A DNA stretch of 62,197 nucleotides, filler included, from Jimgerdemannia flammicorona (Eukaryota), in NCBI GenBank assembly GCA_003990765.1. It is 3 parts of 3 records of this genome, joined end to end, with 100 filler letters (N's around TTAATTAATTAA, not from the genome) between each part and the next. Parts side by side here need not be neighbours in the genome. Positions count along the whole stretch, not along the records: positions 1 to 20,667 come from RBNJ01001621.1; 2 more parts are not named here. The stretch is one strand, 5' to 3'. The notes beneath the pieces are model-generated. The model saw only the letters and a list, made by a program, of their open reading frames with translations, was not told the DNA's origin and did no database searches. Positions within the stretch are counted from its first letter, which is position 1; every line of letters begins with the position of its first letter. Positions 1-41,235 of this stretch are shown piece by piece. The position numbers and the translations under genes are program-made.

Positions 1-584
1 GGTTCGGTTTGTTGGCTTCCTACGGCAATGCGGTTGCTGCCAATAGCATTGGCTACTTCAGATTCTATCCAGTCAGCATCTTCGGTTGATAGGCGGGAGA
101 GGCTACCAGCTGTTACTCCTTGCAAGTATGCTATAGCCCAGGGAATATGGCGGAAGATTTGATGGACACGGAGGGCTCTCTTGATTAGCCGGCTGGTGGT
201 TAACATTTCGGCAATGAGGTCTTCCTGGTCACCTTCTTGAGTCTCATTGCGAAGGCAGTGTCCAATTTCGTAGTCATGCTAGAGGGTCATTCGTTCGGTA
301 GTGTCTTTGAGCTGTTGGGTCATTATATACCAGTAGTTGATGAAGTGTCCAAGGTCTTCAGTGTAGAAGTTCAAGTGTTCGGAAGTATCTGGGTGCCAGA
401 TGGCCTTCTTGATAGCTTCAAAGATCAGGGTCTTTGGGCCAGGCAAAGGGGTAGAGCAGCGGGAGGTCTGGTTGGTTCGGCGAATAGGAGGCATTGTGTG
501 GTGGGTACTTGGTTCTTTGGTGCTGATCCTTGAGGCAGAGTAGGGTTCCTTAAATAACGTGGTCTTCATTTTGGCTCGGGTCAT
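1..584 (-). pseudogene. Accessory ORF of unknown function inside the putative LTR; one in-frame TAG at 279-281
   Basis: The frame continues past the TAG: ...IFEAIKKAIWHP...MTL*HDYEIGHCLRNE...KRALRVHQIFRHIPWAIAYLQGVTAGSLSRLSTEDADWI... It resembles the ORFs at 39462-40559 and 12146-12607. Confidence 0.6.
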
Positions 585-710
585 CTTGTCTTCTTTTGGT
601 GAAATCACTTGACGGATTGGGCTGGTCACCAGTTATCGCACCATAATGTCATCTGATCTTGTGGTCACAGGGTACTCCGAATTTGGATAGGGTCAATTGT
701 AGACGTCACA
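1..710 (-). mobile_element. Start of a putative LTR (begins TGTGACG on minus strand) of an LTR retrotransposon inserted into a copia integrase; truncated by contig start
   Basis: Minus strand starts TGTGAC at 710. Composition switches abruptly from CpG-containing (1-710) to CpG-free copia integrase sequence (711 onward). Confidence 0.6.
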
Positions 711-2292
711 CTATATATTTCAACATACTCTGAGAAGAGGTACTTCATTATCTTTATTGATAATTATACTCACAAAGTCATATATACTTCCTTATAGTAA
801 AGAATGAGATATTTAAGAAATTTCAAAAATTTAAAACAACTGTAAAGAATAAAATAGAATATAAGATACAGATTCTATACTCAGATAATGATAAGAAATA
901 TGTCAACAATACTTCAGAGCCTTCTTAAAGAAGTATAGTATCTAACATATATAATAGCTCTCTATACATCTAAACAAAATAGTATAGTAGAATACTTTAA
1001 TCAAATAGTAGTAGAGATGGCTCAAATGATGATGAATATAGCTAGCTTACTATACTCCTTCTGGGCTAAAGCAGTGAATGCAGCAGCATATACCTAAAAT
1101 CATTATGTTTCTTAAGCTCTAAGCAAGAAATTTAGTAATAATTTGTAATTTAGAAATAATAGTGATCTTACTTCTAAAGAATTGTAGAATAGATCTAAGC
1201 CAGATATCTCATACTTACAGATATTCAGAAGTAAGGCTTATATCTTAAATAAGGGTAATAATAGAGGCAAATTTGAGTTTAAGACAGATAAGTATATATT
1301 TCTTAAATATGACAGAGTAGTATATAGATTATAGAATCTGTAGAAATATTATATTATCATCTTATAATATTTGGTTTAAAAAGTTCAAAAAATAGGAAAT
1401 TTGTATAGAAATTTCTATCTCAACCAACCTAATGATATAGTCAGTAATATCTATACTAACTTCAAAGATAAGTAAAATAGTACTTATATATATCAGTACT
1501 AGTATAACTTATATATATACTAATGAGGTTATCAGAGCTAAGAATTATAGAAATTACAGTCAAAGATAATGATAAGGATACCTTTCTGAAAGGTAAGAAA
1601 AAAATATAAATCTAGAATATAAAATAAAGTTAAAGCAGATTTAGGAGATTATTAAGATCAGCCAAAGACATCCTATTATAGATATTATGTAAACTATATC
1701 TATGAGTATACTTATATAGTAATAATCAATAAGCCAGTAAACTATAATGAAGCTATATACTTAGATGATAAAAAAGAGTAGAAAAAGACTATAAACAAGA
1801 AATATAATTTACTTATCAAGAATAATATATAAGATCTAATCTCTCTTCAAATGAATTAATAAGTAATAGAATCTCACTAGATATATAAAATTAAACATAA
1901 TAGTAATAATAATATAGAGTAGTATAAGGTCTGATTTGTAGTAAAGGAGTACTCACAAGGATATAGTATAAACTATAATGAGATATTTTCTCCAATATTC
2001 AAGCTTACTTTACTTAGAATACTTCTTGTGATTAGAGCTAAATATAATAATAAAATCTACCAAATAGATATTAAGATAGTCTTCTTAAATAGTGACATAG
2101 ATATAGAGCTATATAACTATTAATCAAAAGAATATAATCTATATAATGATGAGCAAAATGAGCTTATATATAAATTATATAAAGGTCTCTATAGTATCAA
2201 ATAAGCAGTAACACTGTAGAACTAAAAAATCAACAAATATCTCTTAGACAACAGATTTAAGTATTTCAAGGCTAATATATATTTATATATAT
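711..2292 (+). mobile_element. Degenerate Ty1/copia pol fragment (integrase to start of RT)
   Basis: Eroded motifs RYFIIFID, FWAKAVNAAAY, YKVxFVVKEYSQ, IFSPIFKL, QIDIKIVFLN and LYKGLYSIK, in copia order IN then RT. Confidence 0.85.
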
Positions 2293-3897
2293 TATAATAG
2301 TGACCTCACAATAGTGACATCATTACAAGAGACAGTCTTTCCTTATAAGTTACCAGATTGAAGTATGAAGATCATATAGCATAACTTATCCAGGCTATAA
2401 GATGAGTAATGATGACTAACCATAAGTCATCATGACTATAAGATAGACATCTCAAAGAATATAAAAGAAGGACTAAGGAACTGCAGCAGTAGCAACTCAA
2501 ACAAAACTCACAAAATTCCAAAATAGTTCGAAGACTCACTATAAATAAAATACCTACCACCCACCAAACCTCAAGGTCTAGGAACCACTAAGGCTTCTTA
2601 GTTTAAAAAAGAATATTCTAAGATATCAGGAGAGCCATGAGAATCTATACTAGAAGGACTCCTAGCCTCAACCTGGGTATTGGTGACCCTTATCACTTTA
2701 TTCTCAACTGCTATGAAATAGAAACAAGGATCACCATTGCTACTGAATACCTCTGAATGTGGCAGAAATATGAAATAGGAAATTTTCTTTACCAGGAATT
2801 CCCTCAGACCAGTCTCTAAGAGATATAAGATACTACTTCTATAGATACATACATATGAATTGAGAGTAGTCAAAAAGATCCATCAGGTCTTCAGATATAT
2901 ATCTTGGTCAATTCCCAACTTAGAGTATATTAGAGTCTCAGACTTCAAGAAATTGTCAGCCTGCTATATAGACCATAGTGGCCACAGAAGTCTACTCTAC
3001 TATCACCCTCAAAAGTGATGAGGTAGAAGAGTTCTGAAATTCCATTCTCAAGGACAATCCTGATCAATTTCTATAAAATTAATCTCAGTATTCTAAGGCT
3101 CTAGTATCTAGATTAGACCCTCTCAAGATCTCACCTTTGTCTTCTACTTTATAGAGGAGAGTCTCATAGATTGGAGAGCCCCTAATCTCCTTACTTCCAC
3201 TGCCTCTGAATGTGATGATGTCATCAGCAATGATGTCACTGACAATGATATCATCTCACTAACTGATAATATGTATAATATATGCAAAATATATAAAACA
3301 AGTAAAATGGATAAAATATTCACTTATCTCATTTTCTTTGAAGACATTCTATTTCTGATCTCTAGTCTTGATAATAGTGATGAAGATGAAGTCTCCAGAA
3401 TCCTGAACATTCTGCTCTGAGTTCTTTGTGTAACTGTTGAAATTCTTCTGGTATTCTGATCTTATATAATCAATTGTACAAATACTTGAATTTGTACTTA
3501 CAACCAAAGTTTTCTATATTCAAGTATCTCATTTATTTGGTTATTGGAATTTATATTTAGTTTTATAATTTAGTAATCATTGAATTATATTTTATATAAA
3601 TACCTCTCTTATTTCTTTTGAAATAAAGTTAGTAGTTAGTAGTAAAGTATTAAAAACACTTAAGCATTCAAGTGCCTAACTACTCAAGAAGTATAGAAGT
3701 TCTAGTCCTCTACTCAATTCTAAGTAAGTGAATCTAAGAGACAACAGAATAGTTTAAAGATAAGAAGTTTGAGGACTATAAGACCTTAGAAAGGTACTCT
3801 AATAAAACTTGCTTATAAGAAATTAGTAGTTGGTCTAAGAGATATACCTTAAAGAGAATCTGATATACTTGGAGAACTTAGTACCCACTATATAATA
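2293..3897 (+). repeat. 5' LTR of gypsy element 1
   Basis: Aligns over its length with 9584-11233. Termini TATAAT...TAATA look like G>A/C>T-eroded TG...CA; followed by the PBS. Confidence 0.88.
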
Positions 3898-4017
3898 ACT
3901 TGGTGTCTATTAACTAGTGATACCATTAGGATTCTTTACTTTCAAGCTAAAAAATGAATAACTACCACAATAACTACTCTGATTACCAGAGTTACCCCTG
4001 TAATAATTCAAGACAAG

Positions 4018-7000
4018 ATGGAAATATGTCCCCCTACATTTTATAGATTTACCACTGAAGAGTCAATCCTGACCTTCATTGAAGACTTTGAACAATTTGC
4101 TACCATACAAGCCCTTACTGTGAAAGTACAATTGACTCTTCTACTAGTTAGCCTCAGAGGACCTGCTAGAGATAAGCTCAATATAACTACTATTGCTGAT
4201 ACTGGTGTAGCCAAACATACCAATATGAAGAACTTCCTCACAATTATATACTATACTGAAGAGATCAAGCAAGCTCTCAAAGATCAACTCAATACTATCT
4301 GCCAGTGACTCAGTAAAGATCCTAACTCATTCTATATCTGAATCTGCTACCAGATTGTCTTGGCTGGTTATGATGACTACCTCAAAGAACAAATAGCTGA
4401 TTCAATCTTTCTAAAAGGAATCTACTATGAAATTGCCCTAGCAATCTAGTCTATCCTAGCTACTCTAACTCTTGATCAGAAAGTGATCTTTGTATAGAGA
4501 TATTGGACTACCAGATACTTTGCTGAACTCTTGATGGAAAGAATAACTAGTATCAAGATAGAGTCATCAAAGCTAATCAGTATCAAACTCACTACAGCCA
4601 TTAATAGACAACTATCCCCACCTACCTCCAAGATGACCAAAACTGACTTAGTGAAGAAACTCACTTGGCAGTTTGCCAAGATAACTGGATATCTTGGATA
4701 TTGTTAGAGAAGTACAAAGTGCCAACAGGAGATCAGTGTAGAATTTTGTAGCTACTACATAGAAATACATTATCATATGCTTCAAATGTAGAGAAAAAGG
4801 CCACTATATAAAGAATTTCATAACTAAAACAAGGCATAGAGTTCAACTAAGTGATACTATCAGAATTAGAGAAGTAGTCATCAAGGAGATTGGTAACACT
4901 GATGATGATGAATACTATGAGAAGTCTGAATTCTACCCCTATTACTAAAGCTACCAGAACTCAGTCCAAGCTTTATGACAAGAAGAGCAACAGAAAGCCA
5001 GTTAGAAGATCAAAAAAGACCTCAACTATTATCATTCAAAGTAAGACCCAATCTGGATAGATTGATCAAGATATAGAGTTAGAAGAAACTGCCAACTAAA
5101 TTATTAAAAGCACTACTCCAGTCTTAGGAGAAAGTGAAAATAAGAAAGAACAGAGCTGAGCAAGACTAAGATCTACTAGTATAATATCTACAAAGATCTC
5201 AAGAAATAGAAGATTAATGCTACTTTTGAACAACTAGTAGAAGTCTCTGTCTTCAGACAATAGTTGAGAGTAGAACTTATAATCACTATCAAGAACTAAG
5301 AGTACAAGATCATAGAAGCTTACAATACTCAGAAAAATAAATAAGACTCAGGTGAAGAATCTGAAGATTAGCACAAGACCTCAGCCTATACTCAATATCA
5401 GATTAAAGATTATATCTTTGATACTATCATCAATATTAGTACTGGAGAATACCTCATAAGTAAGAAGACAATTGACTACCTAGGCTGGGACATTATAGAG
5501 TCTATTAAAATAGTCTATATTATAGCAGATAGTATATAAGCTACTCCTCTAGGCAAGATCCAAGAAGTCTTCATCAAGATTAGAGGAGCCATCATCTCAG
5601 TAGATATGATTATTATAAGTATCACTAACTATGACATCCTCATTGGTAACTAATGGCTTCATAAGGTCAAGGCTATTATTGACCTCAATGTCTAGAAGAT
5701 ATAGATCAACTATAAAGAAAGAAAGGTATGAGTCTCTACCAATATCTACAAAGAGTACTACCAGACATGGAGAAAGGAGATAAAGAGAATATAGAAGTCT
5801 TTATATACTTGGTATATAAGAACAAGAACAAGAATAAGAGTAAGATAATTAAGCTTACAGATAAGTAGTAGTATATATAACAAGATTATTGATGACTATG
5901 TCCCTCAAGGAAGATACTTTCATAGTGCTAGATATACTGCTCCAAACACCTGAATGACTACTGGTCCTGTATCAGTGAAGTCAGAAAAATCCATCAATAA
6001 AGGCATGAGTAAGAAGCTGCTAAAGCAAAAAAGAAAGCCAAAGAAGATGACCAGTTTCCAGAGCTTCAAGCTGATAGTGATGATGAGGAGAAACAAGAAC
6101 TAGACATCACTCCCAAGGTTAAGAAGTTTTATCATAAAGCTAAGATCCCAGAATACAAGACTGAAGGAGCCATAGAAATAGACCTTGCTAGTATATAAGA
6201 TACTATTCTCAAACCATAGATCACTATCCTACTTGATACTGAAATTAGAGTCAAGTTATCAGAAAACTATGCTGGAATCATCAAGACTAGAAGTAGTCTG
6301 ACCAAGAGCAAAATCTCAGTTAAAAGAGGAGTCATTAATCCTGATTACACTGGTGAGATCTTCCTTATAGTTAGGAATCACAACTCCATCACTCCATTCA
6401 AAGTCAAGAAGTATAACAGGATTAACCAGATGCTGATTTATGAAGTCAAGAAGCCTAAGATCACTGAAGCCATCAAACTCATCAAGACTAAAAGAGGAGA
6501 ACAAGGCTTTGGATCTATCAGAAGAGGAGCCTATACTGCTACTAAGGTTACCAAACTTGAGTACAAGAAAGACAAGGACCAGAATAAGCATATATATACT
6601 ATTGAAAAAAACTTTTCACTAGAAGAACAACTTCTCAAGATCTTGTACTAGAATGAAGGAATACTCACCACAGACTTTAGAGACATCTACAATTAAGAAC
6701 TCAAATACTACCATAAAGTTGACACTAGTAATATGTACTAAGCCCATCTACCAGAAAGCCAGACCCATACCACTTATCTATAGAGAATGGCTGTGAGCAG
6801 AACTCAAGGAAATAGAAGAAGCTGGTATCATCAAGTAAGCTATCAGCCCCAGACTTCACCTATTGTCCTTACCCTAAAGAAAGAAAGCAAGTCTGGAGAG
6901 TTTGCTCCAAGACTCTGTATTGATTACAGAAAGCTCAATATAATCACCAAGAAGGTTAGGCAGCTCTTACCAAATATTCAAGAAATCCTTACTACTCTTA

Positions 7001-9240
7001 AAAGTAAAGCCAAATACTATACTACTTTGGATCTATTCTCATGCTTTCATCAGATTAGTCTCACTTAAGATGTCAGTGAGAAATCAGCCTTCATCATACC
7101 TGATACCACCTATGTCTACTTGTGAATGCCATTTGGAATGTACAATACCCTAGTAAGTTTTTAGCAAATGATGAATAGAGTCTTTAGCAATGAAATTAGA
7201 AAATGACTCTTTATCTATATTGATAATGTCATCATCTTCAGTAATACTATATGGGAATATATCAGCTATATATAGCTAGCCTTCAAGAAGCTCAAGGAGT
7301 ATGACCTCTATATCAAGCTCAAGAAGTATAAGTTTGTAGCTCAAGAAATCACCTACCTAGGACACATTATCAACTAGACTGGAATTCACACAGACCCCAT
7401 AAAGATTGAGGCTGTCACAGTCTATCCAAGACCCTGAACAACTATAGAAGTCTATGTCTTCTTTGGACTAACCTTCTACTATAGAAGATTCATCAAAGGA
7501 TACTCTAATATTACAGCACCTATCTATAAACTACTGAAGAAGGAGATCAAATTTGAATGGACTAAAGAATGTCAAGAAATCTTCAACAAACTCAAGACCA
7601 GATTGACCCAAGTATCCATCCTCAGAAGACTAGATTGGAACCTAGAGTTTATCTTACAGATAGATATAAGTACTATAGGATTTAGAGCCATACTAGCTCA
7701 GAAGAAAGATGGTATAAATATGTTATCTCCTATATAAGCTGAGGTATCTGTGGAGCAGAACAGAACTACAAGTCATGCAAGCTTAAATACTTAGCAGTAG
7801 TCTGGACAGTAGATAAGTTTCACTACTATCTAGCTAAACAATACTTCACCATTCAAACAGACCATTTCACTCTTACCTGACTATTCCATACTCTGAACCC
7901 CCCAAAAATATATATTAGATAGATCTACAGACTGTAAAAATATAACTATACTGTCAAACACTGCTCAGGAAGAACCAATGCTAATGCTGATGTACTTTTA
8001 AGAACATCTCTGAATACTTTTATCAAGACTATTCAATATGAATAAGGAGCTATACTATAAATTAATCAGCTATCTTGGGCAGTAGAAGATGCTCAACCAT
8101 CTTGAACCCTGGATCATTACCATCATCAACCAGACTTGGAAACAATTAAACTAGACAACACCATACTTAGAAAAAGAAGAAAGCTTGTCATACTTGAACA
8201 CAAGAAGTATCATATAATGAAAGAAGTATATGAACAAATAATTAGGAGAAATCAATATATATGATAAGGTAAGAAGAATCATATAGTGGTCTAAGATGGA
8301 AGAAGACCTGTGCCAATTTATCAAAGGGTGTGATAAGTACTAAAAACAGAAATAAGATCAGCAAGACCAGATACCTGAGTCATCAAGAATTAAGCCCATC
8401 TCCTTCTACTATATTGTAATAGATATCATTGAAACACTACCAGTAACTCTATCAGAAAACTGCTATATTATAGTTATTGTAGATCTTTTTACCAAATAAA
8501 TAAAAGCAGGAATATTACAAGAAGCCAATAATCTCTCTATTACTGACTTTCTGAACTGAGAAATCATCTGCTGCTATAAGATATCAAGGCAAATCACTAC
8601 AGATCATGATACAGAATTTGTCAATAGATTCTCTAAGATAATATATCAGAAATATAATATTCAGTATATAAAGACTACTATATATTACCCTTAAGAAAAT
8701 TGACAGACAGAAAGAACCAATAAGACCCTCAAGAACATTCTGGCCAAGACCTCAGATATATATGAGAATTGGAATAACTACCTCCCAACCACTCTCTCTA
8801 TCTTATGAGATATATGATCATAGAGTACACACTTTATCCCAAAAGAACTGCTCTTCAGAGAAGAAGATTCTGATAGAATCTCAGCTATAAATCTAGACCT
8901 AACTTAGTGATAGATTGACTCAGAAATCCAGAGACTACATCAAATTAGAAAGAAGGCAGAAGATTATATTATCAAGTCACAAGTACTAATAAGGAAGAAT
9001 GTAGAAAAGAATCACAAGACCCTAGAACTCATTCAAATTAGAGAAAAGGTTTTACTATATTGAAATATAGTAGAAACCTCATGATCATGAAAACTAGAGC
9101 TCAAATGGGAAGAACTCTTCTATATGTAAGATAATAAGAGAACTATCTTCTGGCTTAAAAAACTCTCAGAGACTATACTCTACCATAGTATACAGAAACA
9201 TACTTAAGAAGTACTATAAACCTATATAAGAGAAGTAAAA
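4018..9240 (+). pseudogene. gag-pol of gypsy element 1 (many stops and frameshifts), including a dUTPase domain at ~6120-6525
   Basis: dUTPase motifs EIDL, TRSSL, GVINPDYTGEI, NQML and RGEQGFGS; RT, RNase H and integrase remnants follow. Confidence 0.9.
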
Positions 9241-9583
9241 TATAATGACTACCTATAAGGTTCTAGTCTATGAATTATAACAGTATATTCTATAACTAGC
9301 AGACAATCTGTCTGGACTATTCTCTAAGGGATACAGTACTAGCAACTACTCATCTATGAGACTTTTGAAGTTAGAGGAGTTTGAACTGTCAACTAATTAA
9401 CCAAGATCAGAATCAGGCTCTTGCTCTATATGAAGAGAGTGATCCTTCACTATCATACCAAAATATATAAGAAAGATACTAGCCTATAAATACCTTCTGG
9501 CAGAGATTATAGGATCAGAAAAATTTTCAAACTAGATCAATGAATAAGAATGTTTAAGAAAAGATCATTATTTAGGAAGAAGA

Positions 9584-11233
9584 TATAATAGTGACCTTAG
9601 AATAGTGATATCATTATAAGAGACAGCCTTTTCTTATAAGTCACTAGATCAGAGTATAAGAAGATCATATAGTATAACTCACCCAGGCTATAAGATGAGT
9701 AATAATGACAAATTATAAGTCATCATGACTATAAGATTGACATTCTAAGAAATATAAAAGAAAGACTAAGGAATCACAGCAGTAGCAACTCAAACAAGAC
9801 TTACAAAATTCCAAAATAGTTTAAAGACTCATTATAAACAAAATGTCTACCACTCACCAAATCTTAAGGTCCAGAAACTATCAAAGCTTCTCAGTTCAAA
9901 AAAGGATATGATATTCCAAGATATCAGAAGAGCCATGAGGATCTATACTAGAAGGACTCTTTAGCCTCAACCTGAGTACTAGTAACCCTTATCACTTTAT
10001 TCTCAACTACTATGAAATGGAAACAAGGATCACTATCACTATTGAATGCCTCTAGATATGGCAGAAATATAAAATGAGAAATCTCTTTATTAGGAATTCT
10101 CTTAGACCAGTTCCTAAGAGATATAAAATACTATCTCTATAAATATATATTAATTGAGAGTAACCAAAAAAGATCTATCAGATCTTCAGACATATATCTT
10201 AGTCAATCCCCAACTTGGAGTATACATATCAGAGTCTCAGACTTAAAGAAATTATCAGCCTATCATATAGATATACTGGAGGCTACAGTGACCACAGAAG
10301 CCCAATCCACTATTACTCTCAAAAGTGATGAGATAGAAGAGTTCTGGAATCCCATTCTCAAGGATAATCCTGATCAATTTCTATGAGAATTAATCTTAGT
10401 ATTCTAAGACTCCAGTATTCAGGTTAGACTCTCTCAAGATTCTACCTTTATTCTCTACTTTATAAAGAAGAATTTCATAGATTGGAGAGCCTCTGATCTC
10501 CTTGCTCTCACTGCTCCTAAATGTAATAACATTATCAGCAATAATGTCACTGATAATGACATCATTCTACTAACTGATGACATGCATGATATATATATAT
10601 ATGTAAAATATATAAAATATATGAAATATATAAAATATGTGAAATAGATAAAATATTTGCTAATCTCATTTTCTTTGAAAACATCTTGTCTCTAATCTCA
10701 AGCCTTGATAATAGTAATGAAGATAAAGTCCCCAGAATCTTAAACATTCTGCTCTAAGTTCTTTATACAACTGTTGAAATTCTTCTGGCATTCTGATCTT
10801 ATATAACCAATTATATAGATACTCAAATTTGTACTTACAACTGAAGTTTTCTATATTCAAATATCTCATTTATTTGGTTATTGGAATTTATATTTAGTTT
10901 TATAACTTAGTAATTATTGAATTATATTTTGTATAAATACCTCTCTCATTTCTTTTAAAATAAAGTCAGTAGTCAGTAGTAAAGTATTAAAAACACTCAA
11001 GTATTCAAGTGTCCAACTACTCAAGAAGTATAGAAGTTCTAGTTCTCTACTCAATTCCAAGCAAGCAAATCCAGAAGATAATAAAACAGTTTAAAGATAA
11101 GAAGTTTGAGAACGATAAGACCTTGGGAAGGTACTCCAATAGAACTTACTTATAAGAAACTAGTAGTTGGTCTAAGAATACACCTTGAAGAGAATCTGAT
11201 ATATTTGAAGAACTTAGTACCCAATATATAATA
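9584..11233 (+). repeat. 3' LTR of gypsy element 1
   Basis: Direct repeat of 2293-3897, preceded by a polypurine tract. Confidence 0.88.
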
Positions 11234-11645
11234 ATATATATCTGATATATATCCTTAGAAATAGTATACCTCCGAATTTAGATTAATAATATATATTATT
11301 CTAGTTAGGATGGTAAGTAATATTAATGATATAAAGATAATACTATACTAGAAATTCAAGATGACAGATATAGGTAATGTATTTTATCTTCTTGGAATAT
11401 TAATTATATATAACAGATATAAATATACTACATATATATCTATTACAAACTATATATATTTAGACTATACTTAAATAATTTGGTATAAATAAATGCAATC
11501 CTATTAGAACTTTTATAGAGATATCTGTAAAGCTAAAAAAGTTCAATATTATACCCAAAGATAACAATATCTCCTATTAGCAAGCTGTGAGACCTCTTAT
11601 ATATATATCTTATACTTAAGATGAGACTTAATATATTATATATAG
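11234..11645 (+). mobile_element. Continuation of the copia RT interrupted by gypsy elements 1 and 2
   Basis: Motifs EFKMTDIG, YLLGIL, FGINKCNPIRT and QAVRPLIY resume the copia RT broken at 2292. Confidence 0.8.
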
Positions 11646-12145
11646 TATAACATAGCAGACACTTACTCTTGAAAGTATGTCAGATTTCTGTATCTTGAAA
11701 ACTTGACTGTTCTGACTCTCGCAGAGTCTCTTGAGTTGCAGGAGAGGGTGGGTAAGTTTGAAGTATATCTGCCCACAGGCTTACTAGTTCCTTTGCTATC
11801 TCTTTACTTTGAACTATTTCGATCTGAGGTTTATTCACTCTAAGATACTGGGTTATTTATATAATTTTTGCTAACTATAAGATAGCTCATCTCGCAAGTG
11901 TTGAATCTTTTAACATCTGCTAAGATTTCACTAATTGTGAAGATTCTAACATCTCCTAAATCTTTGCAAACATTAAAGTTTCTGCACTTTGTGGAATGTG
12001 GCTGCTATTTATGAGGCTAAGCTATATTGGAAATTGGATTCAGGTATCATGATCAAATGTCTAATTCCTCTGTTTCATATTATTAATTCAGATCAGCTGT
12101 CACATCTTCCTCCTGAATAGGTGATTTATCTTGGGAGCATCCTAT

Positions 12146-12607
12146 TCACTCGAATTTCCAGGCTTCTATGATTTGTATTTCCTTATACTGTATGATTTGT
12201 ATCATTATGTCCTTCCAATGTTGTCTCTTGATATATCCAAAGTCTCCTGGAGTTACTCCTTGGAAATGGGCTAAGGCTGGCTTATCATCTTTGAATAACT
12301 TGTGTACTCTTTTTGCAATTGTGATCTGAGTGTAGGAGAGCTGACATTCTCTGATCCAGTCTTCTTTTCCCATCTTCAGTCTTGAATTCAGTAGCTGTCT
12401 CAACTTGAAGTATTTCTGGAACTCAGTTCAGTTCTGGTATGTCTTAAAATATGAGATTCATGATAAGTGTGTTTGCACTGTACTCTGGATACTGTCAAAG
12501 GATTCTTTCATTGTTGGTGGCTTGGTGGAATACCACTGTCTTTCGATGGCTTGCTGGGCTGCACTAGTAATTCTGAGGGCAGCAGTATTACTTCATTGAC
12601 TAGTCAT
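12146..12607 (-). pseudogene. Accessory ORF3 (~153 aa) between integrase and PPT of gypsy element 2
   Basis: ATG at 12607 opens a 154-codon frame broken only by TGA codons (probably CGA>TGA): ...FQKYFKLRQLL...IAKRVHKLFKDDKPALAHFQGVTPGDF... Confidence 0.65.
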
Positions 12608-12611
12608 GATA

Positions 12612-15600
12612 CTTCTTGAGTCAGTTTGGTGGATGATAGTGGAGATGATTGTGCCTGAAAGTTTTCATAGCCAAAAGGTGATTCCTTTTATATCGTGCAT
12701 GAGGTAAGGTCCTTCCCACTTGGGCTCCAGTTTTCATGACTATGAGGCTTCTATCATGTTCCAATATACCAGGACTTTGTCTCCTATCTTGATAATCTCC
12801 AGAGGCTTGTGGGTTTTTTCTACATTCTTCTATTGTAGTGCCTGTGCCTTCATTATGTAATCCTCAGCCTTCTTCCTGATTTGGTGTAGTCTCCATATTT
12901 CTCCATCTACATGTCTCCATATAGCATCTCTATTAGACAATAGGGTTTCTCAAGAACTTTCTTCTCTGAACAGTATCTCCCAAGGAGTAAAGTGAGTACT
13001 TTATGATCTGATATCTTGGAGAGCAGATAATGCTATTGACAGATAGTGATCCCAGTTTTCATAGTTATCACAGATCTTGACGATAACATTCTTGAGGGTC
13101 TTGTTGGTCCTTTCTGCTTGTCTGTTTTCTTGGAGGTGATAGGCTGTGGTCCAAATGTACTGGATCTTATACTTCTTGTAGAGAACCTCAAAGAACTGGT
13201 TCATGAATTCTATTCCTCTATCTATAGTTACTTGTATTGGGATCTTGAACCAGCAGATGATTTCTTTGTGGAAGAAATTGGCAATTGACTATGTATTGGC
13301 TTCCTTGAGAGGTCCTGCTTCTATCCACTTCATAAAAAGGTCTATGATGATAATGATATATCAGTTACCAGTCAGGGTCAAGGGTAGAGGGCCAATTACA
13401 TCTATTGCTATGTGGGCAAATGGTACTGATTCTATATGTGCTGATTCTGGAGCTTTGTTTTATTGGTCTTATTTCTGTTTCTGGCATTTGTTACAGGTTT
13501 TGACAAATTGTCTGATATTGTTCTCCATTCCTGGCCACCATATTGTTCTTCTTACCTTATTGTATATATTCATTCCTCCTAGATGGCTGAGTTCATGTAC
13601 TGATTTCATTGCTTGCTCCTTCTTGTATTCTGGTATAACTAGTAGTTTTTCTTTCTTTAGTATTTGTCTGTCAGTTTTGAATTATTTCTATGTTCTGTTG
13701 ATAATCATTTGTATCCATTCTTCCAGATGTTGGGGCATCTTTCACTGTCCTAGATATGTATGTGATAATTCTGTAGTAAAGTTCCTTATTCATGATTGAT
13801 TTATTGGTTGGCGATGTTTTGGAGTATCCATGAGAGAGTATCTATATTGGAATTTATTCTTCCAGAGCAGTGTATAATGGTTACATTGTAGGCTTGTAGC
13901 TTCATTATCCATCTGGCATAGATTCCTTTGGATTGTTTGGTTGTCAGTAGCCAGGTGAGAGCTGAGTGGTCTATCTGAATGGTGAAATGTCTTCCAGCCA
14001 GATAGTAGTGGAATTTTTCCACAGCCCAGATGACTGCAAGGCATTCTAACTTGTAGGATTCATATTTTTTTTCAGCTCCTTGAGTTCCACAGCTAAGGCA
14101 TGCAATGACATACTCTTTTTTGTCTTCCTTTTGAGCTAGAACTGCTCCTAGTCCCTGTGCACTTGCATCTGTCTGCAGAATGAATTCTTGAGTCCAATTG
14201 GGTCATCTGAGGATAGGTGCCTGAGTTAGTCTGATCTTGAGTTCATTAAATACTTTTTGTTGTCTACCAGTCTACTGGAACTTGGTATCTTTCTTATTGA
14301 GTTCATAGATTAGACCTGCAATGTTGGAGAATCCTCTAATAAATCTGTGATAGTAGGAGGCAAGTCCCATGAAGGCTTGAGCTTCTGTAATAGTAATGGG
14401 CCATGGGTATGCTGCTACCACTTATATCTTGAGGGGGTCTGTATGTGTTCCATCTTGATTGATAATATGGCCAAGATAGGAGATCTCGATTTCTGCAAAC
14501 TTGCACTTCTTGGGTTTGATGTAAAGGCCATATTGTCTTAGTCTCTCCATTATCTGCTGTATATGCTGCAGATGTTCCTCAGGTGTCTTGCTATAGATAA
14601 TTATATCATTGATATAGACCATCATCCATCTTCCTATATCATAGTGGAAGATTTTATTCATCATTCACTGAAAGCTTACTGGTGTATTGCACATCCTGAA
14701 TGGCATTTGTAGGTAGATATAGGTTCTGTCTGGGGTGATGAAGGCTGACTTTTCACTTGCCATCTCTGTGAGTCCAATTTGGTGGAATCCTGAGTATAAG
14801 TCCAAGGTGCTGTAGTACTGTGCTTTGTCTCTCAGTGTTATAAGGATGTCACTGATGAGGGGCAGTAGTTGGCAATCCTTCTTGGTAACTACATTGAGCT
14901 TTCTGTAGTCAATACAGAGTCTTGGGGTGAATTCTCCAGGTTTGCTTCCTTTTTTCGGGGCTAGTACAACTGGTGAAGACCAGGGACTGCGGGCTTCTTT
15001 GATAATACCAGCTTCTTCCATCTGCTTGATTTCTTCTCTAAGCCATTCTCTGTAGGCTGGTGGGACAGGTCTTGCCTTCTGGTAAATTGGTTTGGTGTCT
15101 TCAGTATCTATCTTGTGATAGTAGTGTAGAGTCTTTCCTTTGATATCCTTGAAGTCCATGGCAAGGACATCCTTAAATTCATGGAGTATTTTCTTGAGTT
15201 CCTCCTTGAGTGGAAATTCATTTCTGATGATATAGCTGTGCTTGTTTGTGCTTTCCTCCTTCTTATGCTTTAGTTCAGTGATCTTAGTACTGATGAATAC
15301 TCCTCTTTCTATGAATCCAAATCCTTTCTTTCCTCTTTTCATTTTCTCCAGATTCTTGACTTCTATGATCCTTGGTTGTAGGATTGGAAAGATCAGCATC
15401 TGTGCCAATCAGTCCTTCTTTTTGACTGGGAATGGGATTGTAGAATTGTGATTTCTAGTAATGAGCAGGATTTCTCCAGTATAGTCAGAATCAATGACTC
15501 CTCCTTCAATCATAATTTTGCTTCTGGCCAGGCTGCTTCTTATCTTGAGGATCCTAATATGTTCTTTTGGAATAGTCATTTCCAGTCCAGTTGTGAGTAG

Positions 15601-17772
15601 GGTGGTTGTCTGGGGTTCCAGTATGACTTCTTCTACTGTGGCAATGTCTATTCCAGCTGTATTTTCTGACTTATATTCTGGCAGAACTGCATCAGGGTGG
15701 GTTCTTTGAATCTTGACATTGATTTCTTCATCATCACTATCCTCCAGGAGGGCTGGTGGTTCATCATCTTCCTCCTCCTTTTCTTCTCTGACCTGTTTTT
15801 TGAGAGCCTTCTGTCATCTTTTCTGGTAAATCTTTCTGATTCTGATGGTGCATTGATAGCAATTATTGATATGCTCCATACAGTACATCTTGATTCTGTG
15901 AGGACAGACTCCTTGTGGTACATAGCCTTCTGCAATCTTCTTGCACCATTCTTCTTCACTCATCCATCCTACTTTTCTCTTCGGAATAGTTATCATATAA
16001 GCTTCCTCCTGCTCACTCTCTTCTTCCTCTATGTCAGGCAAGACTCCTTTGTTGACATTGATGGGAATTCGTATCCTCTGTCCCCAGTAGGTGAATTGCA
16101 TCTTCTGGGCATTGAGATCAATTACTGCTCTGGCTTTGTGAAGCTATTGATTGCCGATGAGGATGTCATAGTTGGTAGCATTGGTTACAATTATGTCTAC
16201 TGGGATGGTTACTCCTCTGATCTTAATGGGGACATCTCAGATCTTTCCCAGAGGGGTGGCTCTTGTATCATCTGCTGTGACAAATACTAACTTGGTTACT
16301 TCTTCAATCTCTCAACCTAGGCAGTCTGCTGCCTTCTTGCTGAGAAGACATCCTCCTGCTCCAGTATTGATGATGGCTTCAAAGACTCTATCTTTGATTT
16401 GGCATATTACATAGGCAGAGGTTTTGAGATTGTCTTCACTTTCTTCTCCTGAGTCCTCTTGAATGTTATTGGCCTTGGTTATCTTCCATCCTTACTCCTT
16501 GGTTGTTTCAGTAAGTCTGAAACTCATTTGTTATCTAAATGTTGGGATTTCTGCGAGCTGACCAAAGGTTGCATTGACCTTTTATTGGCTAAGGTCCTTG
16601 AAGATATTGTACTTAAAAGTCTTGGTCTTGCGAAGTTTCTTTTCTTTTTCTCCTTTGCTGGCTGGGGTAGTTCCTTAGATAATATCTTAAACTGCTTGCT
16701 CCAGCTCCATATCTTGGTCCATCTCTTCAGCTTGGCTTTTGGTGGCCATTTCCATCTACTTTTCTACTGGGTTCTTCTTGGGTCTTCCTGGTGGTCACTT
16801 GTAGGGTTCCTTGTGAACATCCTTCTTAGTAGTCTGAGCAGGATAGGCCTCTCATTCTTCTTCATCAGAGTCTCCAATTTCCTTGAAGGTAATTGTATTG
16901 GCCTGCTCCTTGTTTCATGTAGCATTGCTTGGTTGAGCCTTATGCTTAGTTTTGCTCATACATTCATAGGAGTAGTGGCCTTCTTCTCTACAAGTATAGC
17001 AGGTGCCTTTCTTCTTGTCTGAGGTGGCAGCAAACTTCTGGACAGAGCAGCAGTCTCTTCCTCTGATCTTCTTTACTACATCTCCCAAGTGGGCAGTCAT
17101 TTCTACGAACCTCTTAGTAAGTTCTTTCAAAGGGTCACTGTTCTTTTGCTGCTCTGTAGCTTTGAGCTAAAGTGTGTTTTGATTGAACATTATGGTGGGG
17201 ATCATACTGGTTGACTTAGGTGCCTTGATTCTGACTTCTGTAACTCTCTCCATTGTATGGTCTTATGAGTATCTGACTATCCAGTATTGCTGAGCATAGG
17301 TGACCTTCTGTGGTAGATCCAGAATCACTGGTGATAAGCAGATGGTCATAGCTATTTCTGGGTGGACTCCTTTCATGAAGGTTGCTTCAGCTACTTGATC
17401 TCAGATAGCAGCAGCATAATCTGCAAGAATTATCTCATATCAAATTCTGGTATAGAATGTGTTTGGATCCTCACTCATTCCTTGGCATGTTGTGTTGAAC
17501 TAATCCTTTAGGGCTTGCTTGATCTCATCTGTATAGTATGTATTTCAGAGCCAGGTCTTCTGTGCTGTCAGTATAGCATCAGCATCATTTACTGCATGGG
17601 TTGTGGCTGTGAATGCTGCTCTGGCAGGACCTCATAGGCTGAAGGGCATGAGGGCTACTTGCTGTACTGCTGTCAGGGTCCTTACAGTGGCATATTGCTC
17701 GAAATCATCAATGAAGGTGATGATTGATTCATCTGAAATATATCCATGGAATACTGGTGGTCTCATATCCAT
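12612..17772 (-). pseudogene. gag-pol of gypsy element 2, with dUTPase at ~15320-15700
   Basis: ORF-track fragments 14665-15408, 14422-14664, 13801-14022 and 13001-13204 carry dUTPase C-terminus/RT, RT, RNase H and integrase motifs. Confidence 0.9.
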
Positions 17773-18050
17773 CTTATCTGGATATTGGCATGGTTGTTCA
17801 GGTAGAGACAGTTGTTTATTGTTCAGCTTGAAAGTGAGGAATTTATCTTGAATTACCAGCAAATGGGCACCAAGTTGTAATGTAGCAGATGCTTACTCTT
17901 GAAAGTATGTCAGATTTCTATATCTTGAAAACTTAACTGTTCTGACTCTCACAGAGTCTCTTGAGTTACAGGGGAGGGTAGGTGAGTTCAAAGTGTATCT
18001 GCGTATAAGCTTACTAGTTCCTTTGCTATCTCTTTGCTTTGAACTATTTC

Positions 18051-19352
18051 TGTTGTGGAATACTTGGAATGGAGGGAGCAAAAAAAAACAAACTGTTTAT
18101 TGCTAATTCTTACATGCTTTTACACATCACAATTAGTGACGTTTACATGATGACATAGTCAAGGAAGGCTGCGCCACCATATATCAAGTTGTAATCTACA
18201 TATTTCAATACTCTCGCTCAATGAGATACATATGCAAATTCCCAAACTGCAATACTAAGCTATAACCACTGCAAATCTTGCTGCAATGTTCAGACCGCTA
18301 TCTAGAAACCGAAAAACACTCGAATTGCCTGCTTAAAGCTTGATAAATAGGTTGAGAAGTAGAAATGTGAATATTTGTAGATGAGCAATGTTGGTAGAAA
18401 TCACCAATACAGGAAAAAATGTTAAAGAAGCTTGCTGTCACTCTATTATCCTATCTCATCCCGAATTGTCCTTAATTACCAGCATAGAGTCCCGTAATAC
18501 CCATTCCTTGCACGCATAAGTCAAACTTTGCCTTTGGAAGGGCTTTAGTCAATGAATCCACTGTCATATATTCTGTTAGGGTGTATTCAAGGTATATAGT
18601 GCCATTTTCCACGTATTCACATATGAAATGATGCTGTATGTCAATGTGTTTCATTCTGGCGTGATGTATAGGGTTCTTCGCCAAAGCAATCATTGATTGG
18701 TTATCTTGCTAGAGTAGCGTAGAGTGCCGTTGCTTATATCCCAGCTCCTTTAACAGTTCTCAAAGCCAGATAGCCTCCTTTGTTGCCATTGACAATGCTT
18801 GATATTCCACTTATGTAGAGGATGTTGCCACTAAAGGTTGCTTATACGTTTGCCACGAAATGGCTCTGTTGTTTACTTTAAAGATGTATCCAGTCATAGA
18901 CCTTCTGTCATCTAAGTTGCTGGCCCAATTAGCGTCACAAGAACTGAGTAGGCATATAGTACTCCCACTTTGCCCATTATCACCACCCAAACTGAGCATA
19001 TAGTCCACAGTTCCTTTGATATACCTGAAAATTCGCTTGATTGCCATCCAATGCGAATTATCATAGCATGACAAGTATTGTGCCACTTTTTTGACTGCAA
19101 ATGATATGTCAGGTCTCATCCCGAGCATAAGATACATGAGGGATCCCACAGCTTGTCGATCGGGGATGTTGTTATTTTCGAGCATAGTTCCAGACTTCTT
19201 TAACCTCACAGACATCTCCATCAGTGTTCTGACTGGCTTGCACTTGCTCATGCCAAATCGCTCAAGTATTGTTTGAATGTAGACTTCTTAGCTTAGGTAT
19301 ATAGTATGCGCACTTCTGTCACGTATAATAGATATCCCTAAAAGGAGGATGG
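18051..19352 (-). mobile_element. 3' part of a Ty1/copia element (RT end, RNase H, PPT, 160-bp 3' LTR at 18051-18210)
   Basis: Motifs QAVGSLMYLMLGMRPDI, DANWASNLDDRRSMTGY, ATSST and KHIDIQHHF. LTR T(A)TTG...CAACA preceded by a purine tract at 18220-18211. Confidence 0.92.
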
Positions 19353-23688: not shown

Positions 23689-23724
<36 letters not shown>

Positions 23725-33213: not shown

Positions 33214-34078
33214 TATAAGTATATAATCTCCAAGCTACTAAAATCACACATTACCTTTCAAATAAATCTGGAAATTATATGCAAGATCATAAAGCTGAGT
33301 CAAATCAAAATCATAAAGTACAAAGCTAAGTTAACTCAAAGTTATAGAATATAAGACTTATATAAATAAAATCTTACCAATCAGGACCAAATACATATAC
33401 TAAGTTCTTAGATATATCAAAACAAAGAACTACAATAAACTAAACAAATAACTATAACTCTCAAATATATATAACTATGATCACTAAGATCTACAACTGT
33501 ATCTATACTGATATTTGGAATATTATTATTAACTGAGTTATACTTCTCCTATCTCTCATAAATATCTATAATCTAGTACCTCTCTACTTTATAAAAGCTT
33601 GATAGAATGCCCTAAATATACTTAGTGAAGCCTATTGAATTAGATAAATCTCAAGCTACTATTAAATTAGCCACCTCTTAGAAGATATGGTTGAATACTA
33701 CTATAATATAGATATTATTTAGATGTCCTAATACTAGAAACTCATTGCCTATAAATACCAAGAACTCTTCTATAAGTACAGCACCTTTATCTCTCATCTC
33801 TAAGTTATTACTACTGAAATTATTGCTACTCTGTCCTATGGCCAAATCAATGATATAGTATAAAAACTTAACTATAAGTATATTAAGTATATTTAAATTA
33901 TAGATAGAACCTTCCTATACTTTGATAACTATATCCTACAAATGTCTCAAGTTGGATATATCATAAAAGATATCTATAATATATATATATAATCTAGTTT
34001 GATAATAATAAAATAGAAGATAATAATCTCTCTAATACTGATATAATCTCTAACTAAGGATTCCTACCAACTCCAGAC
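33214..34078 (+). mobile_element. Old, heavily C>T/G>A-mutated copy of the LTR at 39174, interrupted by a LINE
   Basis: TATAAGTATATAATCTCC corresponds to TGTAAGCGCACAACCTCC; colinear with 39174 to ~40055. Confidence 0.9.
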
Positions 34079-39173: not shown

Positions 39174-41235
39174 TGTAAGCGCACAACCTCCAAGCCACCG
39201 AAATTACACGTCACCCTCTGAACAAGCCACTGAAATCACACGCGATCTCCAAACAAATCTAGAAATCACCTGCTTGATCATGAAGCTGAGTCAAACCAAA
39301 GTCACAGCGCACAAAGCTGAGTCAATACAAAGTCACGGAACACAAGATCTACACAAACGGAACATTACCAATCAGGACCAAATGCATATATACTGAGCAC
39401 CGAGACGCGTCAAGTCAGAGAACCAAAACAAACAACAACCACAACTTCCAAACACACAAACATGACCACTGAGATCTACAACCGCATCCGCGCTGACATT
39501 TGGAATGCCATTGTCAACCGAGCCACACCCCCTCTGCCCCTCATGAATATCCATAGCCTGGCCCCCCTCTACTTCATGGAAGCCCGATGGAATGCCCTGA
39601 ACATGCTTAGCGAGGCCCACCAAATTGGACAAATCTCAAGCTACTACCAGATCGGCCACCTCTTGGAAGACATGGTCGAACACCACCACGATACAGACAT
39701 AACCCAGATGTCTCAACACCAGAAGCTCATCACCCGCAAACATCGAGAACTCTTCTATGAGTACAACACCTTTATTCCCCACCTCCGAGTTACTACTAGT
39801 AAAATGGTTGCTACTCTGTCCTACGGCCAAATCGATGACATGATACAAGAAATCAACCACAAGTACCTTGAGTATGTCGAAACCACAGACAGAACCTTCC
39901 CGCACCCCGATGACCATATCCTGCAAATGCCTCAAGTCATATACGCCATAAAGGACGTCTACGATATAATCCACTTCGATGAAGATGAAGCAGAAGACAA
40001 CGACCCCTCTGATGCCGACATGACCTCTAGCCAAGGATCTCTGCCAACTCTGATCACTCTGCCAACCTTGCCAATGAACCTACAACAGTTCATAACTACC
40101 TACGAAACTTATTGGGACAATGACCACTGGCACGAATACCAACCCGCATTCACCCCCGATTACTTCAACTACAATGAAGAAACCGGAGAACACAACCTGT
40201 ACCTTCAGACAACCCTCGAGATCGAACCAACCACTCCACCACCCGAGTACGAGCGACTTGAACCACAGCCACCAGCTTACTACAACCCCGCGACTCATAG
40301 TGCCATAACCTATAGAAGGTACGCAGACAGCGAATCCGATGAAAGCGAAGACAGTACACCCATCCTTCGCCCAGCAACACCTTATCCAGCATACGAAACA
40401 GATGATGCTATCCTGTGGGACGGAGATGAAGTCCCAATGTATTACTACCTCAGCCAACAAGGAGAAGTAATCCGTGAACCATTATTCCTAGACGACTACT
40501 TCATCAGAGATGATGCAATCGATGGTGATGTCATCGAGGAATACCCAGATAGCGCCTAAACCTATAAATAGTCTAGCAGTTATAGTATAGATAGATTAGC
40601 CTTGTACGACATGACTGTGAACTGACTCAGCAGTCAGACGATCTCTTGACATGTTAGATCACACTTGTACTACGTGACTGCATTCCGACTCAGCAAAGCA
40701 CTTAGTGCTACATCCATATCTAGCATAGTCCAGATAGCCCCTCACTAGTATAAATACCCCCTCACCCAGACCTCAGAATCTCAGACTCAAACACATAAGA
40801 ACATTCCTGAATACTTCCCCACAATATCCCTTCACATAACTACTCCTAGTATAGCAATATCATGAATAGCGAATAAACCTATTTCATAATCCACAAACCA
40901 CTCTTAAGTAAATCCGCTCTCTGTTAGGTCTTACTCCTAACCCTGTCACGAAATTTCCTAATTGGGTATTGTCTGCAGCGATACGCCAATTCAACTAAGC
41001 TGGCCTTAGTTTCTTGAACTTCCTGAAATACGGAAAATCCTGAACATTCAGAACTAGTCCGGAAAAGGACTTTGGTTGAGACGTCAACCGGATCTTGAAA
41101 TCAATAAGCGTAGAGGACGTACTCCATACGAAATTGATCTTGACCATAAGAAAACAGTCTTCCAGAACATCCAGAATATCCAGAAAACCCTACTAGAACT
41201 ACGTAACGGTCACCCTAAAAAGTAACCCTCTTACA
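39174..41235 (+). mobile_element. 2062-bp 5' LTR of a young LTR retrotransposon; internal region truncated at 41433
   Basis: TGTAAG...CTTACA inverted termini. The left end is confirmed by the interrupted LINE and by the old copy at 33214. TATA-like TATAAATA at ~40563 and ~40750, AATAAA at 40872; the PBS follows. Confidence 0.88.
39462..40559 (+). CDS. Intact 365-aa accessory protein encoded inside the LTR (helical N-terminal domain, acidic Pro/Tyr-rich tail)
   Basis: Uninterrupted ATG-initiated ORF with C-rich third positions; homologous motifs occur in other elements of the window. Confidence 0.8.
   Translation: MTTEIYNRIRADIWNAIVNRATPPLPLMNIHSLAPLYFMEARWNALNMLSEAHQIGQISSYYQIGHLLEDMVEHHHDTDITQMSQHQKLITRKHRELFYEYNTFIPHLRVTTSKMVATLSYGQIDDMIQEINHKYLEYVETTDRTFPHPDDHILQMPQVIYAIKDVYDIIHFDEDEAEDNDPSDADMTSSQGSLPTLITLPTLPMNLQQFITTYETYWDNDHWHEYQPAFTPDYFNYNEETGEHNLYLQTTLEIEPTTPPPEYERLEPQPPAYYNPATHSAITYRRYADSESDESEDSTPILRPATPYPAYETDDAILWDGDEVPMYYYLSQQGEVIREPLFLDDYFIRDDAIDGDVIEEYPDSA

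Follow-up and report, generated by a model that had tools for sequence, protein, structure and literature searches.

One unnamed accessory gene is common to four different retrotransposon families of Jimgerdemannia flammicorona (A, B, C, and D), mostly inside their LTRs. It was found in a stretch of 62,197 nucleotides, filler included (the window). The original prediction had described three ORFs with shared motifs as one family, and all three, with the motifs quoted for them, are present in the translated window. BLASTP and left-out-family profiles support the homology of A, B, and C, with C as the weakest link, in a family wider than had been noted. The proposal of an undescribed accessory family tied to Ty3 pol is likewise supported. 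Pfam contained no family over its cutoff for the window ORFs or for 32 members.

RESULTS

Accessory genes and their elements

The host elements are Ty3/gypsy retrotransposons, in which LTRs, PBS, PPT, and the order PR-RT-RNaseH-INT are present. Families A, B, and C each have at least 150 copies in such elements, with 2297 to 5477 first-look candidates in the genome. Family A is represented by one end of the window.

1..710, minus strand: initial 710 nt of a 5' or solo LTR of family A, about 2.4 kb when complete
3..494, minus strand: family-A accessory gene, 5' part with the core domain; 1 stop; truncated by the contig end
550..556, minus strand: TATA-like box (TATTTAA); the family-A ATG lies 62 nt downstream

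The family-A ORF, predicted at 1–584 on the minus strand, does read from 584 to 3, but a second ATG at 494 is the likelier start, both by alignment to relatives and because the first ATG, at 584, precedes the TATA-like box. Intact copies encode 328 aa with an acidic tail, and the gene occurs in both LTRs of three full A elements. No PPT was found ahead of the LTR at 1..710.

Family B is represented by the element gypsy 2.

11632..12104, minus strand: gypsy 2 3' LTR, about 470 nt, without the ORF
12105–12119, minus strand: gypsy 2 PPT
12146..12607, minus strand: family-B accessory gene, 153 aa (core plus 23-aa tail), with 3 stops here
12686..12692, minus strand: TATAAAA within the integrase codons D-I-K; the family-B ATG lies 85 nt downstream
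12608..17793, minus strand: gypsy 2 gag–protease–dUTPase–RT–RNaseH–integrase

The gene frame is separate from integrase in other family-B copies. Of 54 B loci, a set with at least one duplicated place, 53 have the integrase end no more than 150 nt upstream of the gene. The original prediction placed the LTR-embedded versions in the least eroded elements; the post-integrase form, however, is not restricted to eroded ones, and most of the 150 B-type matches listed have a stop-free gene.

Gypsy 1 carries family D.

2293..3898, plus strand: eroded gypsy 1 5' LTR; identity to its 3' counterpart, 83%
2550..3420 (about), plus strand: family-D gene of the 5' LTR, disrupted by frameshifts and stops; TATAAAA at 2460
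3961..9192, plus strand: gypsy 1 gag–protease–dUTPase–RT–RNaseH–integrase, eroded
9245..9450, plus strand: spacer from integrase to PPT
9584..11234, plus strand: gypsy 1 3' LTR with a second broken family-D gene (about 9843–10757); TATAAAA at 9753

The true fourth member is the family-D gene in both gypsy 1 LTRs, which was overlooked earlier. The remnant originally suggested at about 9245–9450 is without a profile match in the window, and none above 3 bits was found in 22 family-D loci; in the young copy L165, this frame has 6 stops in 125 codons, versus 0 in 272 for the LTR gene. The three ORFs had been placed in elements with no obvious DNA similarity, which is true of the ORFs themselves, but a 3-kb stretch of pol shows 67% identity between gypsy 1 and gypsy 2.

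Family C occurs twice.

33231..34073, plus strand: old, AT-eroded partial family-C LTR copy, with a dead ORF from 33477
39174..41235, plus strand: family-C (chromovirus) 5' LTR, TG…CA, 2062 nt
39387..39392, plus strand: TATA-like box with an A/C-rich leader after it; the family-C ATG lies 75 nt downstream
39462..40559, plus strand: family-C accessory gene, intact, 365 aa, starting 288 nt into the LTR
40749..40877, plus strand: likely main promoter of the family-C LTR, TATAAATA (40749), and AATAAA (40872)

Both TATAAATA and AATAAA are 3' of the family-C stop, which would place the gene in U3. The LTR is followed by a PBS-like TGGTAGCAGCGG at 41239, and the element is interrupted by the assembly gap at 41434. 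The decayed copy at 33477 was absent from the original prediction. Family C is a chromovirus with a chromodomain (PF00385; E value, 1e-16) at the integrase C terminus; such an integrase precedes the C genes in three loci (C787, C2423, and C1414), and the chromodomain is absent from the A, B, and D elements mapped. The RT identity of family C to the other families is 34 to 40%.

Homology across the four families

Pairwise BLASTP E values were 2e-8 for A–B and 1e-4 for both C–A and C–B. Left-out-family profiles gave 98.1, 52.6, 33.1, and 32.5 bits for A, D, C, and B, respectively, against 12.8 bits for the best shuffle; no shuffle attained the real score (1000 were supplied per family, of which 919 to 988 received a score). 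Profile-profile comparison of shallow alignments (hhalign) speaks against the homology of some pairs: the probability reached 99% for A–D and 95% for A–B, but only 22% for B–D and 6 to 50% for the three C pairs. No divergent A or C subfamily was found among the best matches in the genome; an open and colinear C relative matches at 67 to 70% over 246 aa.

Three of 20 representative matches (P0011, P0016, and P0018) were dropped as repeat artefacts. Because A, B, and C were all in the profile that selected the other 17, their profile search is partly circular, and the left-out-family test with shuffles is the cleaner test of homology. Two environmental loci were recovered, and no genomic context was found for an environmental 156-aa group. 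Proteins with a similar motif order presumably occur in Glomeromycota, where word-limited searches returned no named protein of this kind.

Position, selection, and phylogeny

The accessory gene is tied to the 3' end of the element: after integrase in B, before the PPT in L128, and in the LTR in A, C, D, and L127. The variable position claimed originally was thus confirmed, with the B gene between integrase and the PPT and the A and C genes within LTRs; the internal site between pol and the 3' LTR is shared by B and L128.

The gene is kept in most copies of a family, and codon comparisons indicate that it is under purifying selection. Between B1 and B2, synonymous sites are saturated at a dN of about 0.2; L105 and L106 give a dN/dS of 0.15; and D and L127 differ at 64/39/94 sites by codon position. 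Within-family dN/dS values for C (0.07 to 0.18) were discounted because the copies were picked by protein similarity and because CpG decay favors third positions. The earlier argument that retention across divergent elements implies function agrees with this selection.

In the RT tree, B and D are sisters (100/100); in the gene tree, D groups with A (99/97), and C is on a long branch. With groups defined after the trees were inspected, the AU test rejected a grouping of B and D alone (P = 0.001) but not one of B with D's wider clade (P = 0.057).

A TATA-like box upstream of the gene

In six lineages (A, B, C, D, L127, and L128), the ATG is preceded at a distance of 62 to 87 nt by a TATA-like box. 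It is present in 28/28 usable A loci (of 30 given; the TATTTAA variant was added to the pattern after family A was inspected), 30/30 C loci, 23/24 B2 loci, and 21/21 D loci, the pattern having a high background in eroded D (39/210 windows). Family B carries this box within its integrase codons. The Ile of D-I-K is ATA in 47/47 B copies, 44 of which read exactly GAT ATA AAA, versus 0/18 in the sister family D, which lacks a gene at the integrase site, and a background ATA use of 13/56. Because copies of one family cannot be treated as independent, the promoter tally amounts to six lineages, and the integrase recoding to a single event. In subfamily B2, the gene ATG overlaps the last integrase codons and the pol stop, so that coupled translation is an alternative route to an internal promoter. 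Short repeats lie 3' of the gene in the A and D LTRs, and the C U3 has just one 9-mer present twice.

Predicted protein

The predicted fold is a helical core with an HTH-like helix pair, and LTR-borne versions are predicted to add an acidic, aromatic tail. The conserved all-helical core is about 140 aa long. The family-B model has a pLDDT of 90 and a pTM of 0.81; the family-C model has the same helix order in its core (residues 1–142), followed by a disordered acidic tail. The two models share most alignment rows, and their agreement is therefore not independent. One position in the second helix is Arg or Lys in 29 of 32 aligned proteins; overall, the core is not strongly basic.

The C-terminal half of both models (residues about 57–150) resembles the helix arrangement of ParB-type HTH cores (VirB, Z = 3.6 and 4.5; SopB, Z = 3.5; ParB, Z = 4.8), with an rmsd of 4.3 to 6.1 over 81 to 89 residues and 8 to 14% identity. 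The C model also aligned to the DeoR and sigmaF HTHs (Z = 3.9 and 5.1; rmsd, 2.5; 46 residues). These scores are within the background range (Z < 8), tied with unrelated helical proteins, as is the likeness to phage DUF3102, for which a viral model matched with a TMq of 0.42 and an E value of 1.4; the genome yielded 0 DUF3102 candidates. Among other searches, PHROGs gave unnamed families (best E value, 0.0025), PDB sequences a best E value of 0.11, and the ESM Atlas no usable match for C and unnamed, uninterpretable clusters for B. With Foldseek, neither PDB nor BFVD supplied a match at E ≤ 0.001. The VIA structural search peaked at Z = 4.3 and 5.3, from which neither novelty nor difference of the fold follows.

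Acidic versus basic residues (D+E versus K+R) in the tail number 49/7 in C, 37/4 in A, and 25/7 in D. This composition fits an activation domain in A, C, D, and L128. The tail is only 23 to 26 aa long in B and most environmental members, and that of P0014 is not acidic (22 versus 18); long activation tails are thus not a general trait. No transmembrane segment, an env-like trait, was predicted: the highest 19-residue hydropathy in A, B, C, and D is 0.15 to 0.77.

DISCUSSION

We tentatively favor, by analogy, a self-promoted transactivator working like foamy-virus Tas. The accessory gene would be a dedicated gene of dUTPase-bearing Ty3/gypsy elements. Its upstream TATA-like box may drive a short mRNA that is separate from the gag-pol transcript and terminates at the LTR poly(A) signal. 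The core would bind DNA through the HTH-like helix pair, probably at the short U3 repeats between the gene and the main TATA, and the acidic, aromatic tail would recruit the host transcription machinery. The protein could thereby switch on the LTRs of its own family in a feedback loop. With the gene in U3, any LTR, including a solo LTR, is a potential source of activator. Tas/Bel1, in the portions of the foamy-virus account consulted (PMC3798896), is likewise encoded by a 3' accessory gene. The internal promoter of that gene sits within env, much as the putative promoter of B sits within integrase, and Tas has the DNA-binding domain, acidic activation domain, and U3 target that are proposed here. 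It differs in belonging to an animal retrovirus, whereas the present gene often lies wholly within the LTR along with its putative promoter. No sequence or fold link to Tas emerged from the Pfam search of 32 members or the fold searches.

A post-transcriptional or protein-level helper, acting in Rev/CERV-like RNA export, in nuclear import of the integration complex, or as an acidic decoy for a host defence protein, is unlikely. RNA binding by a basic helix is conceivable, no ligand can be assigned from fold matches this weak, and such roles are among those proposed for additional ORFs in the sections available of PMC7264820; yet the recurring structural neighbors with named ligands are DNA-binding HTH cores, and the overall charge of the core also speaks against this role.

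Quite unlikely, too, is an anti-silencing factor like Arabidopsis VANC, which would bind its own repeats and remove or block methylation or heterochromatin without recruiting polymerase. The HTH-like core and U3 repeats would fit, and silencing pressure exists, since the genome's elements are CpG depleted: RT-region CpG o/e ranges from 0.06 to 0.35 among nine B elements and from 0.28 to 0.47 among five elements of A and C, compared with 0.9 to 1.1 in two host genes. VANCs of VANDAL DNA transposons, in the extracts consulted (PMC10398659, PMC5735166), bind noncoding regions of their own TEs and thus offer a parallel as TE-encoded extra proteins with a possible family-specific target in repeats; they belong to plant DNA transposons, no homology was seen, and the mutational trace at CpG sites gave no demethylation signal and showed no protection in A. 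Lasting protection in cis finds no support in paired-LTR CpG sites with a deamination-type difference, which number 172/247 in A (gene in the LTR), 54/79 in B (gene outside it), and 33/67 in C (lower, but a small sample), a comparison blind to transient or trans-acting effects. The original hint that the gene shields its element from erosion is therefore unsupported, LTR CpG decay being alike in A and B and intact copies being numerous in B; the slight A/C excess in CpG o/e over B is confounded with age and comes from few elements.

A negative regulator (copy-number control or a latency switch), in which the core would bind the LTR or integrase complex and repress it, with tail-less B as a pure repressor, is improbable. 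A putative promoter of its own and short forms without the long acidic tail accord with it, and solo LTRs would scale its dose with copy number. Against it stand the high copy numbers reached by A, B, and C, and long acidic, aromatic tails are typical of activators. Finally, a functionless hitch-hiker, or a C gene unrelated to the others with chance motifs, is highly improbable despite the low C profile-profile probabilities and long C branch, given the 33 bits of C against a best shuffle of 12.8, the open, colinear C relative, and the purifying selection; "functionless" is already largely refuted.

For the favored transactivator, an extension that we consider possible but doubtful is a portable promoter-plus-transactivator cassette in U3 that crosses the PPT both ways and has been swapped between chromoviral and non-chromoviral Ty3 lineages.

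Other known systems are also comparable. Additional ORFs (plant env-like, Grande gene23, RIRE2, Retand, and Botrytis Boty) are, in the available parts of PMC7264820, conserved extra 3' ORFs of unassigned function, and the Grande ORF has its own promoter and a nuclear protein; these ORFs lie between pol and the 3' LTR and are antisense or env-like with transmembrane segments. In contrast, the accessory gene is sense, encodes a soluble protein, moves across the PPT into the LTR, and occurs in chromoviral and non-chromoviral elements. Coding sequence in U3 is also a property of MMTV sag and lentiviral nef, to which no homology was seen; both have host-immune functions in animals, and sag is a membrane protein. 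No published description of the accessory family was found in the open-access literature, which does not establish its absence from print.

The usual view takes LTRs to be noncoding and a solo LTR to be a dead end. In this genome, three families hold a gene under selection and a promoter-like box in the LTR, and a fourth has rebuilt the box in integrase codons. The accessory core, as modeled, offers a small, well-folded, unnamed domain for structural and binding work. Should the cassette reading be true, solo LTRs, numbering in the thousands, would be regulatory units with coding capacity and self-amplification, and fungal retrotransposons would have a circuit like that of complex retroviruses. 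If the protein is an activator or an anti-silencing factor, bursts of LTR elements in this genome of 231 Mb may have a cause that can be put to the test.

An accessory gene shared by Ty3/gypsy families

Six-frame translation of the window recovered all three ORFs of the original prediction, with their quoted motifs. A decayed copy of C is listed with them.

584 to 3, minus strand: ORF A, one stop
12607 to 12146, minus strand: ORF B, three stops
39462 to 40559, plus strand: ORF C, open, 365 aa
33477: decayed C copy

Positions 1 to 20667 are a single contig and C is on a different contig, the N gaps joining separate contigs. These gaps (20668–20767 and 41434–41533) hold the TTAATTAATTAA spacer and are contig joins, not biology. 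In the 231-Mb genome itself, A, B, and C each had at least 150 scored matches, from 5477, 2297, and 4550 candidates, respectively.

The proposed kinship of the ORFs was borne out, most weakly for C. A search with a six-copy profile returned 20 representatives, of which 17 were genuine and three were repeat artifacts; the ten that were looked up were metagenomic and either unnamed or "hypothetical." Gene identity between families was 12 to 29%, and intact copies were linked by BLASTP (A–B, 2e-8; C–A and C–B, 1e-4). On the window, a profile of 12 external proteins scored 76 (B), 75 (A), and 59 (C) bits, a partly circular test; the reversed window gave 2.3 bits with this profile and 6.5 with a nine-protein profile. 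Leave-one-family-out profiles scored 98.1 (A), 52.6 (D, a fourth family), 33.1 (C), and 32.5 (B) bits, the best shuffle reaching 12.8. Whole-genome searches with single external proteins also found family copies (E values of 1.5e-6, 4e-7, and 3e-9). Against homology, hhalign put pairs with C at 6 to 50% and B–D at 22%. C counts as a member only on the pooled evidence.

A fourth remnant had been suggested at 9245–9450, after the integrase of gypsy 1, a family-D element. The profile picked it up neither in the window nor in 22 family-D loci, and a stop stood ten codons ahead of its motif in 20 of 20 loci examined and in the young copy L165, where this frame held 6 stops in 125 codons versus 0 in 272 for the LTR gene. 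The true family-D gene sits in both gypsy 1 LTRs and is intact in L165 and another genomic copy, L169. From the L165 integrase stop to the LTR (window about 9230–9620, plus strand), another frame with 1 stop in 125 codons continues through the polypurine tract (PPT) and enters the LTR; this frame does not belong to the family and may be a further small ORF or a chance product.

Position within the elements

The expected association with Ty3 pol held in the four families; A, B, C, and D are all Ty3/gypsy elements. Each family, the chromovirus included, has a dUTPase between protease and reverse transcriptase (RT), with two examples in the window.

15409–15810: dUTPase
6220–6651: dUTPase

The LTRs measure 2.4 kb in A, with the gene in both (three loci: C427, C309, and C2935), 2.06 kb in C, whose integrase bears a chromodomain, and 1.6 kb in D. 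Family B has 470-nt LTRs and carries the gene directly 3' of integrase in 53 of 54 loci. Among 30 loci each, the gene was in a 3' LTR behind the PPT in 6 (A) and 13 (C), in a 5' or solo LTR in 19 and 14, and in an unassigned class in 5 and 3. In the environmental locus L128, a PPT-like run with TGTAA next to it marks the end of the ORF, which puts the gene ahead of the LTR. In L127, a relative of L128, TATAAATA and AATAAA come 3' of the stop, like in A and D; within one subgroup, the gene thus crosses the boundary of the LTR. In A, C, D, and L127, a second TATA and AATAAA 3' of the gene would place it in U3. One cluster of nested insertions (G000:C2423) is free of A; in it, C elements, a fragment of B, and an LTR of D sit inside one another.

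RT identities were 44 to 47% (A–B), 57 to 66% (B–D), and 34 to 40% (C versus the rest). RT groups B with D, and the gene groups D with A. In the AU test, grouping B+D alone had a p value of 0.001, and grouping B with the clade of D had one of 0.057. These trees suggest swapping of the gene between element lineages.

Selection and a promoter-like box

Selection was compared in DNA for subfamilies B1/B2, loci L105/L106, and D/L127. For A and C, divergent relatives were compared as proteins only, and open ones stand at about 78% (A) and 68% (C). B1 and B2 differ by 70 to 82 silent changes at about 89 synonymous sites (saturated), with a dN of 0.20 to 0.22; L105/L106 had a dN/dS of 0.15. Differences between D and L127, both intra-LTR, were 64/39/94 by codon position (transversions alone, 44/17/35). 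Judged by these substitution patterns, the accessory ORF is a real gene under selection, and a lack of function is very improbable.

A TATA-like word lies 55 to 95 nt 5' of the ATG in 28/28 (A), 30/30 (C), 23/24 (B2), and 21/21 (D) usable loci, against 27/280, 0/300, 1/240, and 39/210 background windows, with one pattern variant added once A had been seen and copies within a family not independent. It also occurs in L127 (−65) and L128 (−80). We regard the integrase codons of B as the sharper test. There the box overlaps codons D-I-K, and Ile is ATA in 25/25 B1 and 22/22 B2 copies versus 0/18 in D, the sister family, where no gene follows integrase (6 copies unclassified; background ATA use, 13/56). 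Because ATC versus ATA is a transversion, C-to-T decay does not account for it. The recoding is one event, yet it was retained while the gene's silent sites became saturated. The B2 ATG, in addition, overlaps the stop codon of pol.

Predicted protein and possible role

The B model (pLDDT, 90; pTM, 0.81) has helices at 4–22, 40–75, 81–88, 92–105, 109–114, 120–124, and 128–151. The helix order recurs in C 1–142, where the third helix is shorter; the input alignments of the two models overlapped. The C tail is mostly below pLDDT 50. No structure search of the B and C models gave a clear fold match; ParB-type helix-turn-helix (HTH) cores recurred with both models at Z scores of 3.5 to 4.8, inside the background range. 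Arg or Lys occupies the second helix of the HTH-like pair in 29 of 32 members. Tails are acidic and aromatic in A, C, D, and L128, and that of B has 23 residues. No transmembrane segment was found in the A, B, C, and D proteins. The family is not classed as Tas (the foamy-virus transactivator), env-like, or ParB.

Beside the established gene, element linkage, selection, and promoter-like box, our tentative reading, at a little under an even chance, is a self-promoted, Tas-like DNA-binding activator of the element's own LTR. The gene would be transcribed from its own box, and the protein would bind DNA and switch on the LTR of its own family. Tas is expressed from an internal promoter in env and combines a DNA-binding domain with an acidic activation domain (PMC3798896); the proposed likeness lies in an internal promoter within an upstream coding gene, known in env there and putative in integrase in family B.

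An RNA or protein helper is unlikely, and an anti-silencing factor like VANC of VANDAL transposons follows it in our ranking. The earlier hint that the gene protects elements from erosion found no support: deamination-type differences affected 172/247 (A, 3 pairs), 33/67 (C, 2 partial pairs), and 54/79 (B, 9 pairs) CpG sites of paired LTRs, with no lasting shield in cis. RT-region CpG was depleted in 15/15 elements; most of the 150 B-type matches listed are open. A passing or trans protective effect may exist. Transitions exceeded transversions about tenfold in paired LTRs even outside CpG, suggesting a wider methylation or RIP-like process. A repressor, the opposite of the activator that we favor, is quite improbable.

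Other features of the window

22477–26903: intron-bearing host genes with normal CpG content, one NOL10/Enp2-like, the other for a GPN-loop ATP-binding protein (GTPase)
34079–39092: element with two long ORFs on the minus strand (35777–37078, which by eye resembles RT, and 37096–38364)
19356–20660, 46059–48690, 54434–56290, and 60069–62190: LINE-like family copies, strong G skew
57688–58098: RT fragment
48706–48969 and 54208–54421: 33-nt-unit arrays, inverted orientation, 5.3 kb apart
50237–50593: DUF659-like transposase fragment, flanked by the arrays
711–1500 and 18811–19287: fragments of copia-like integrase and RT, eroded, identified by eye

The host is a eukaryote, probably a fungus, and its NOL10-like and GPN-loop GTPase genes contain introns. 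The 34079–39092 element looks DIRS/Ngaro- or Penelope-like; its repeats are split, with 34574–35085 recurring at 38243–38754 (92%) and, in inverted orientation, at 38741–39092 (94%). Neither it nor the 18811–19287 fragment had a Pfam match. Together, the arrays and DUF659-like fragment probably represent a DNA transposon carrying subterminal repeats.

Relation to known accessory ORFs

The accessible part of a fungal survey mentions only chromodomains and nested inserts (PMC3248453), and titles and abstract openings yielded no report of this accessory family. LTR elements are already known to carry extra ORFs, most of which sit between pol and the 3' LTR (PMC7264820).
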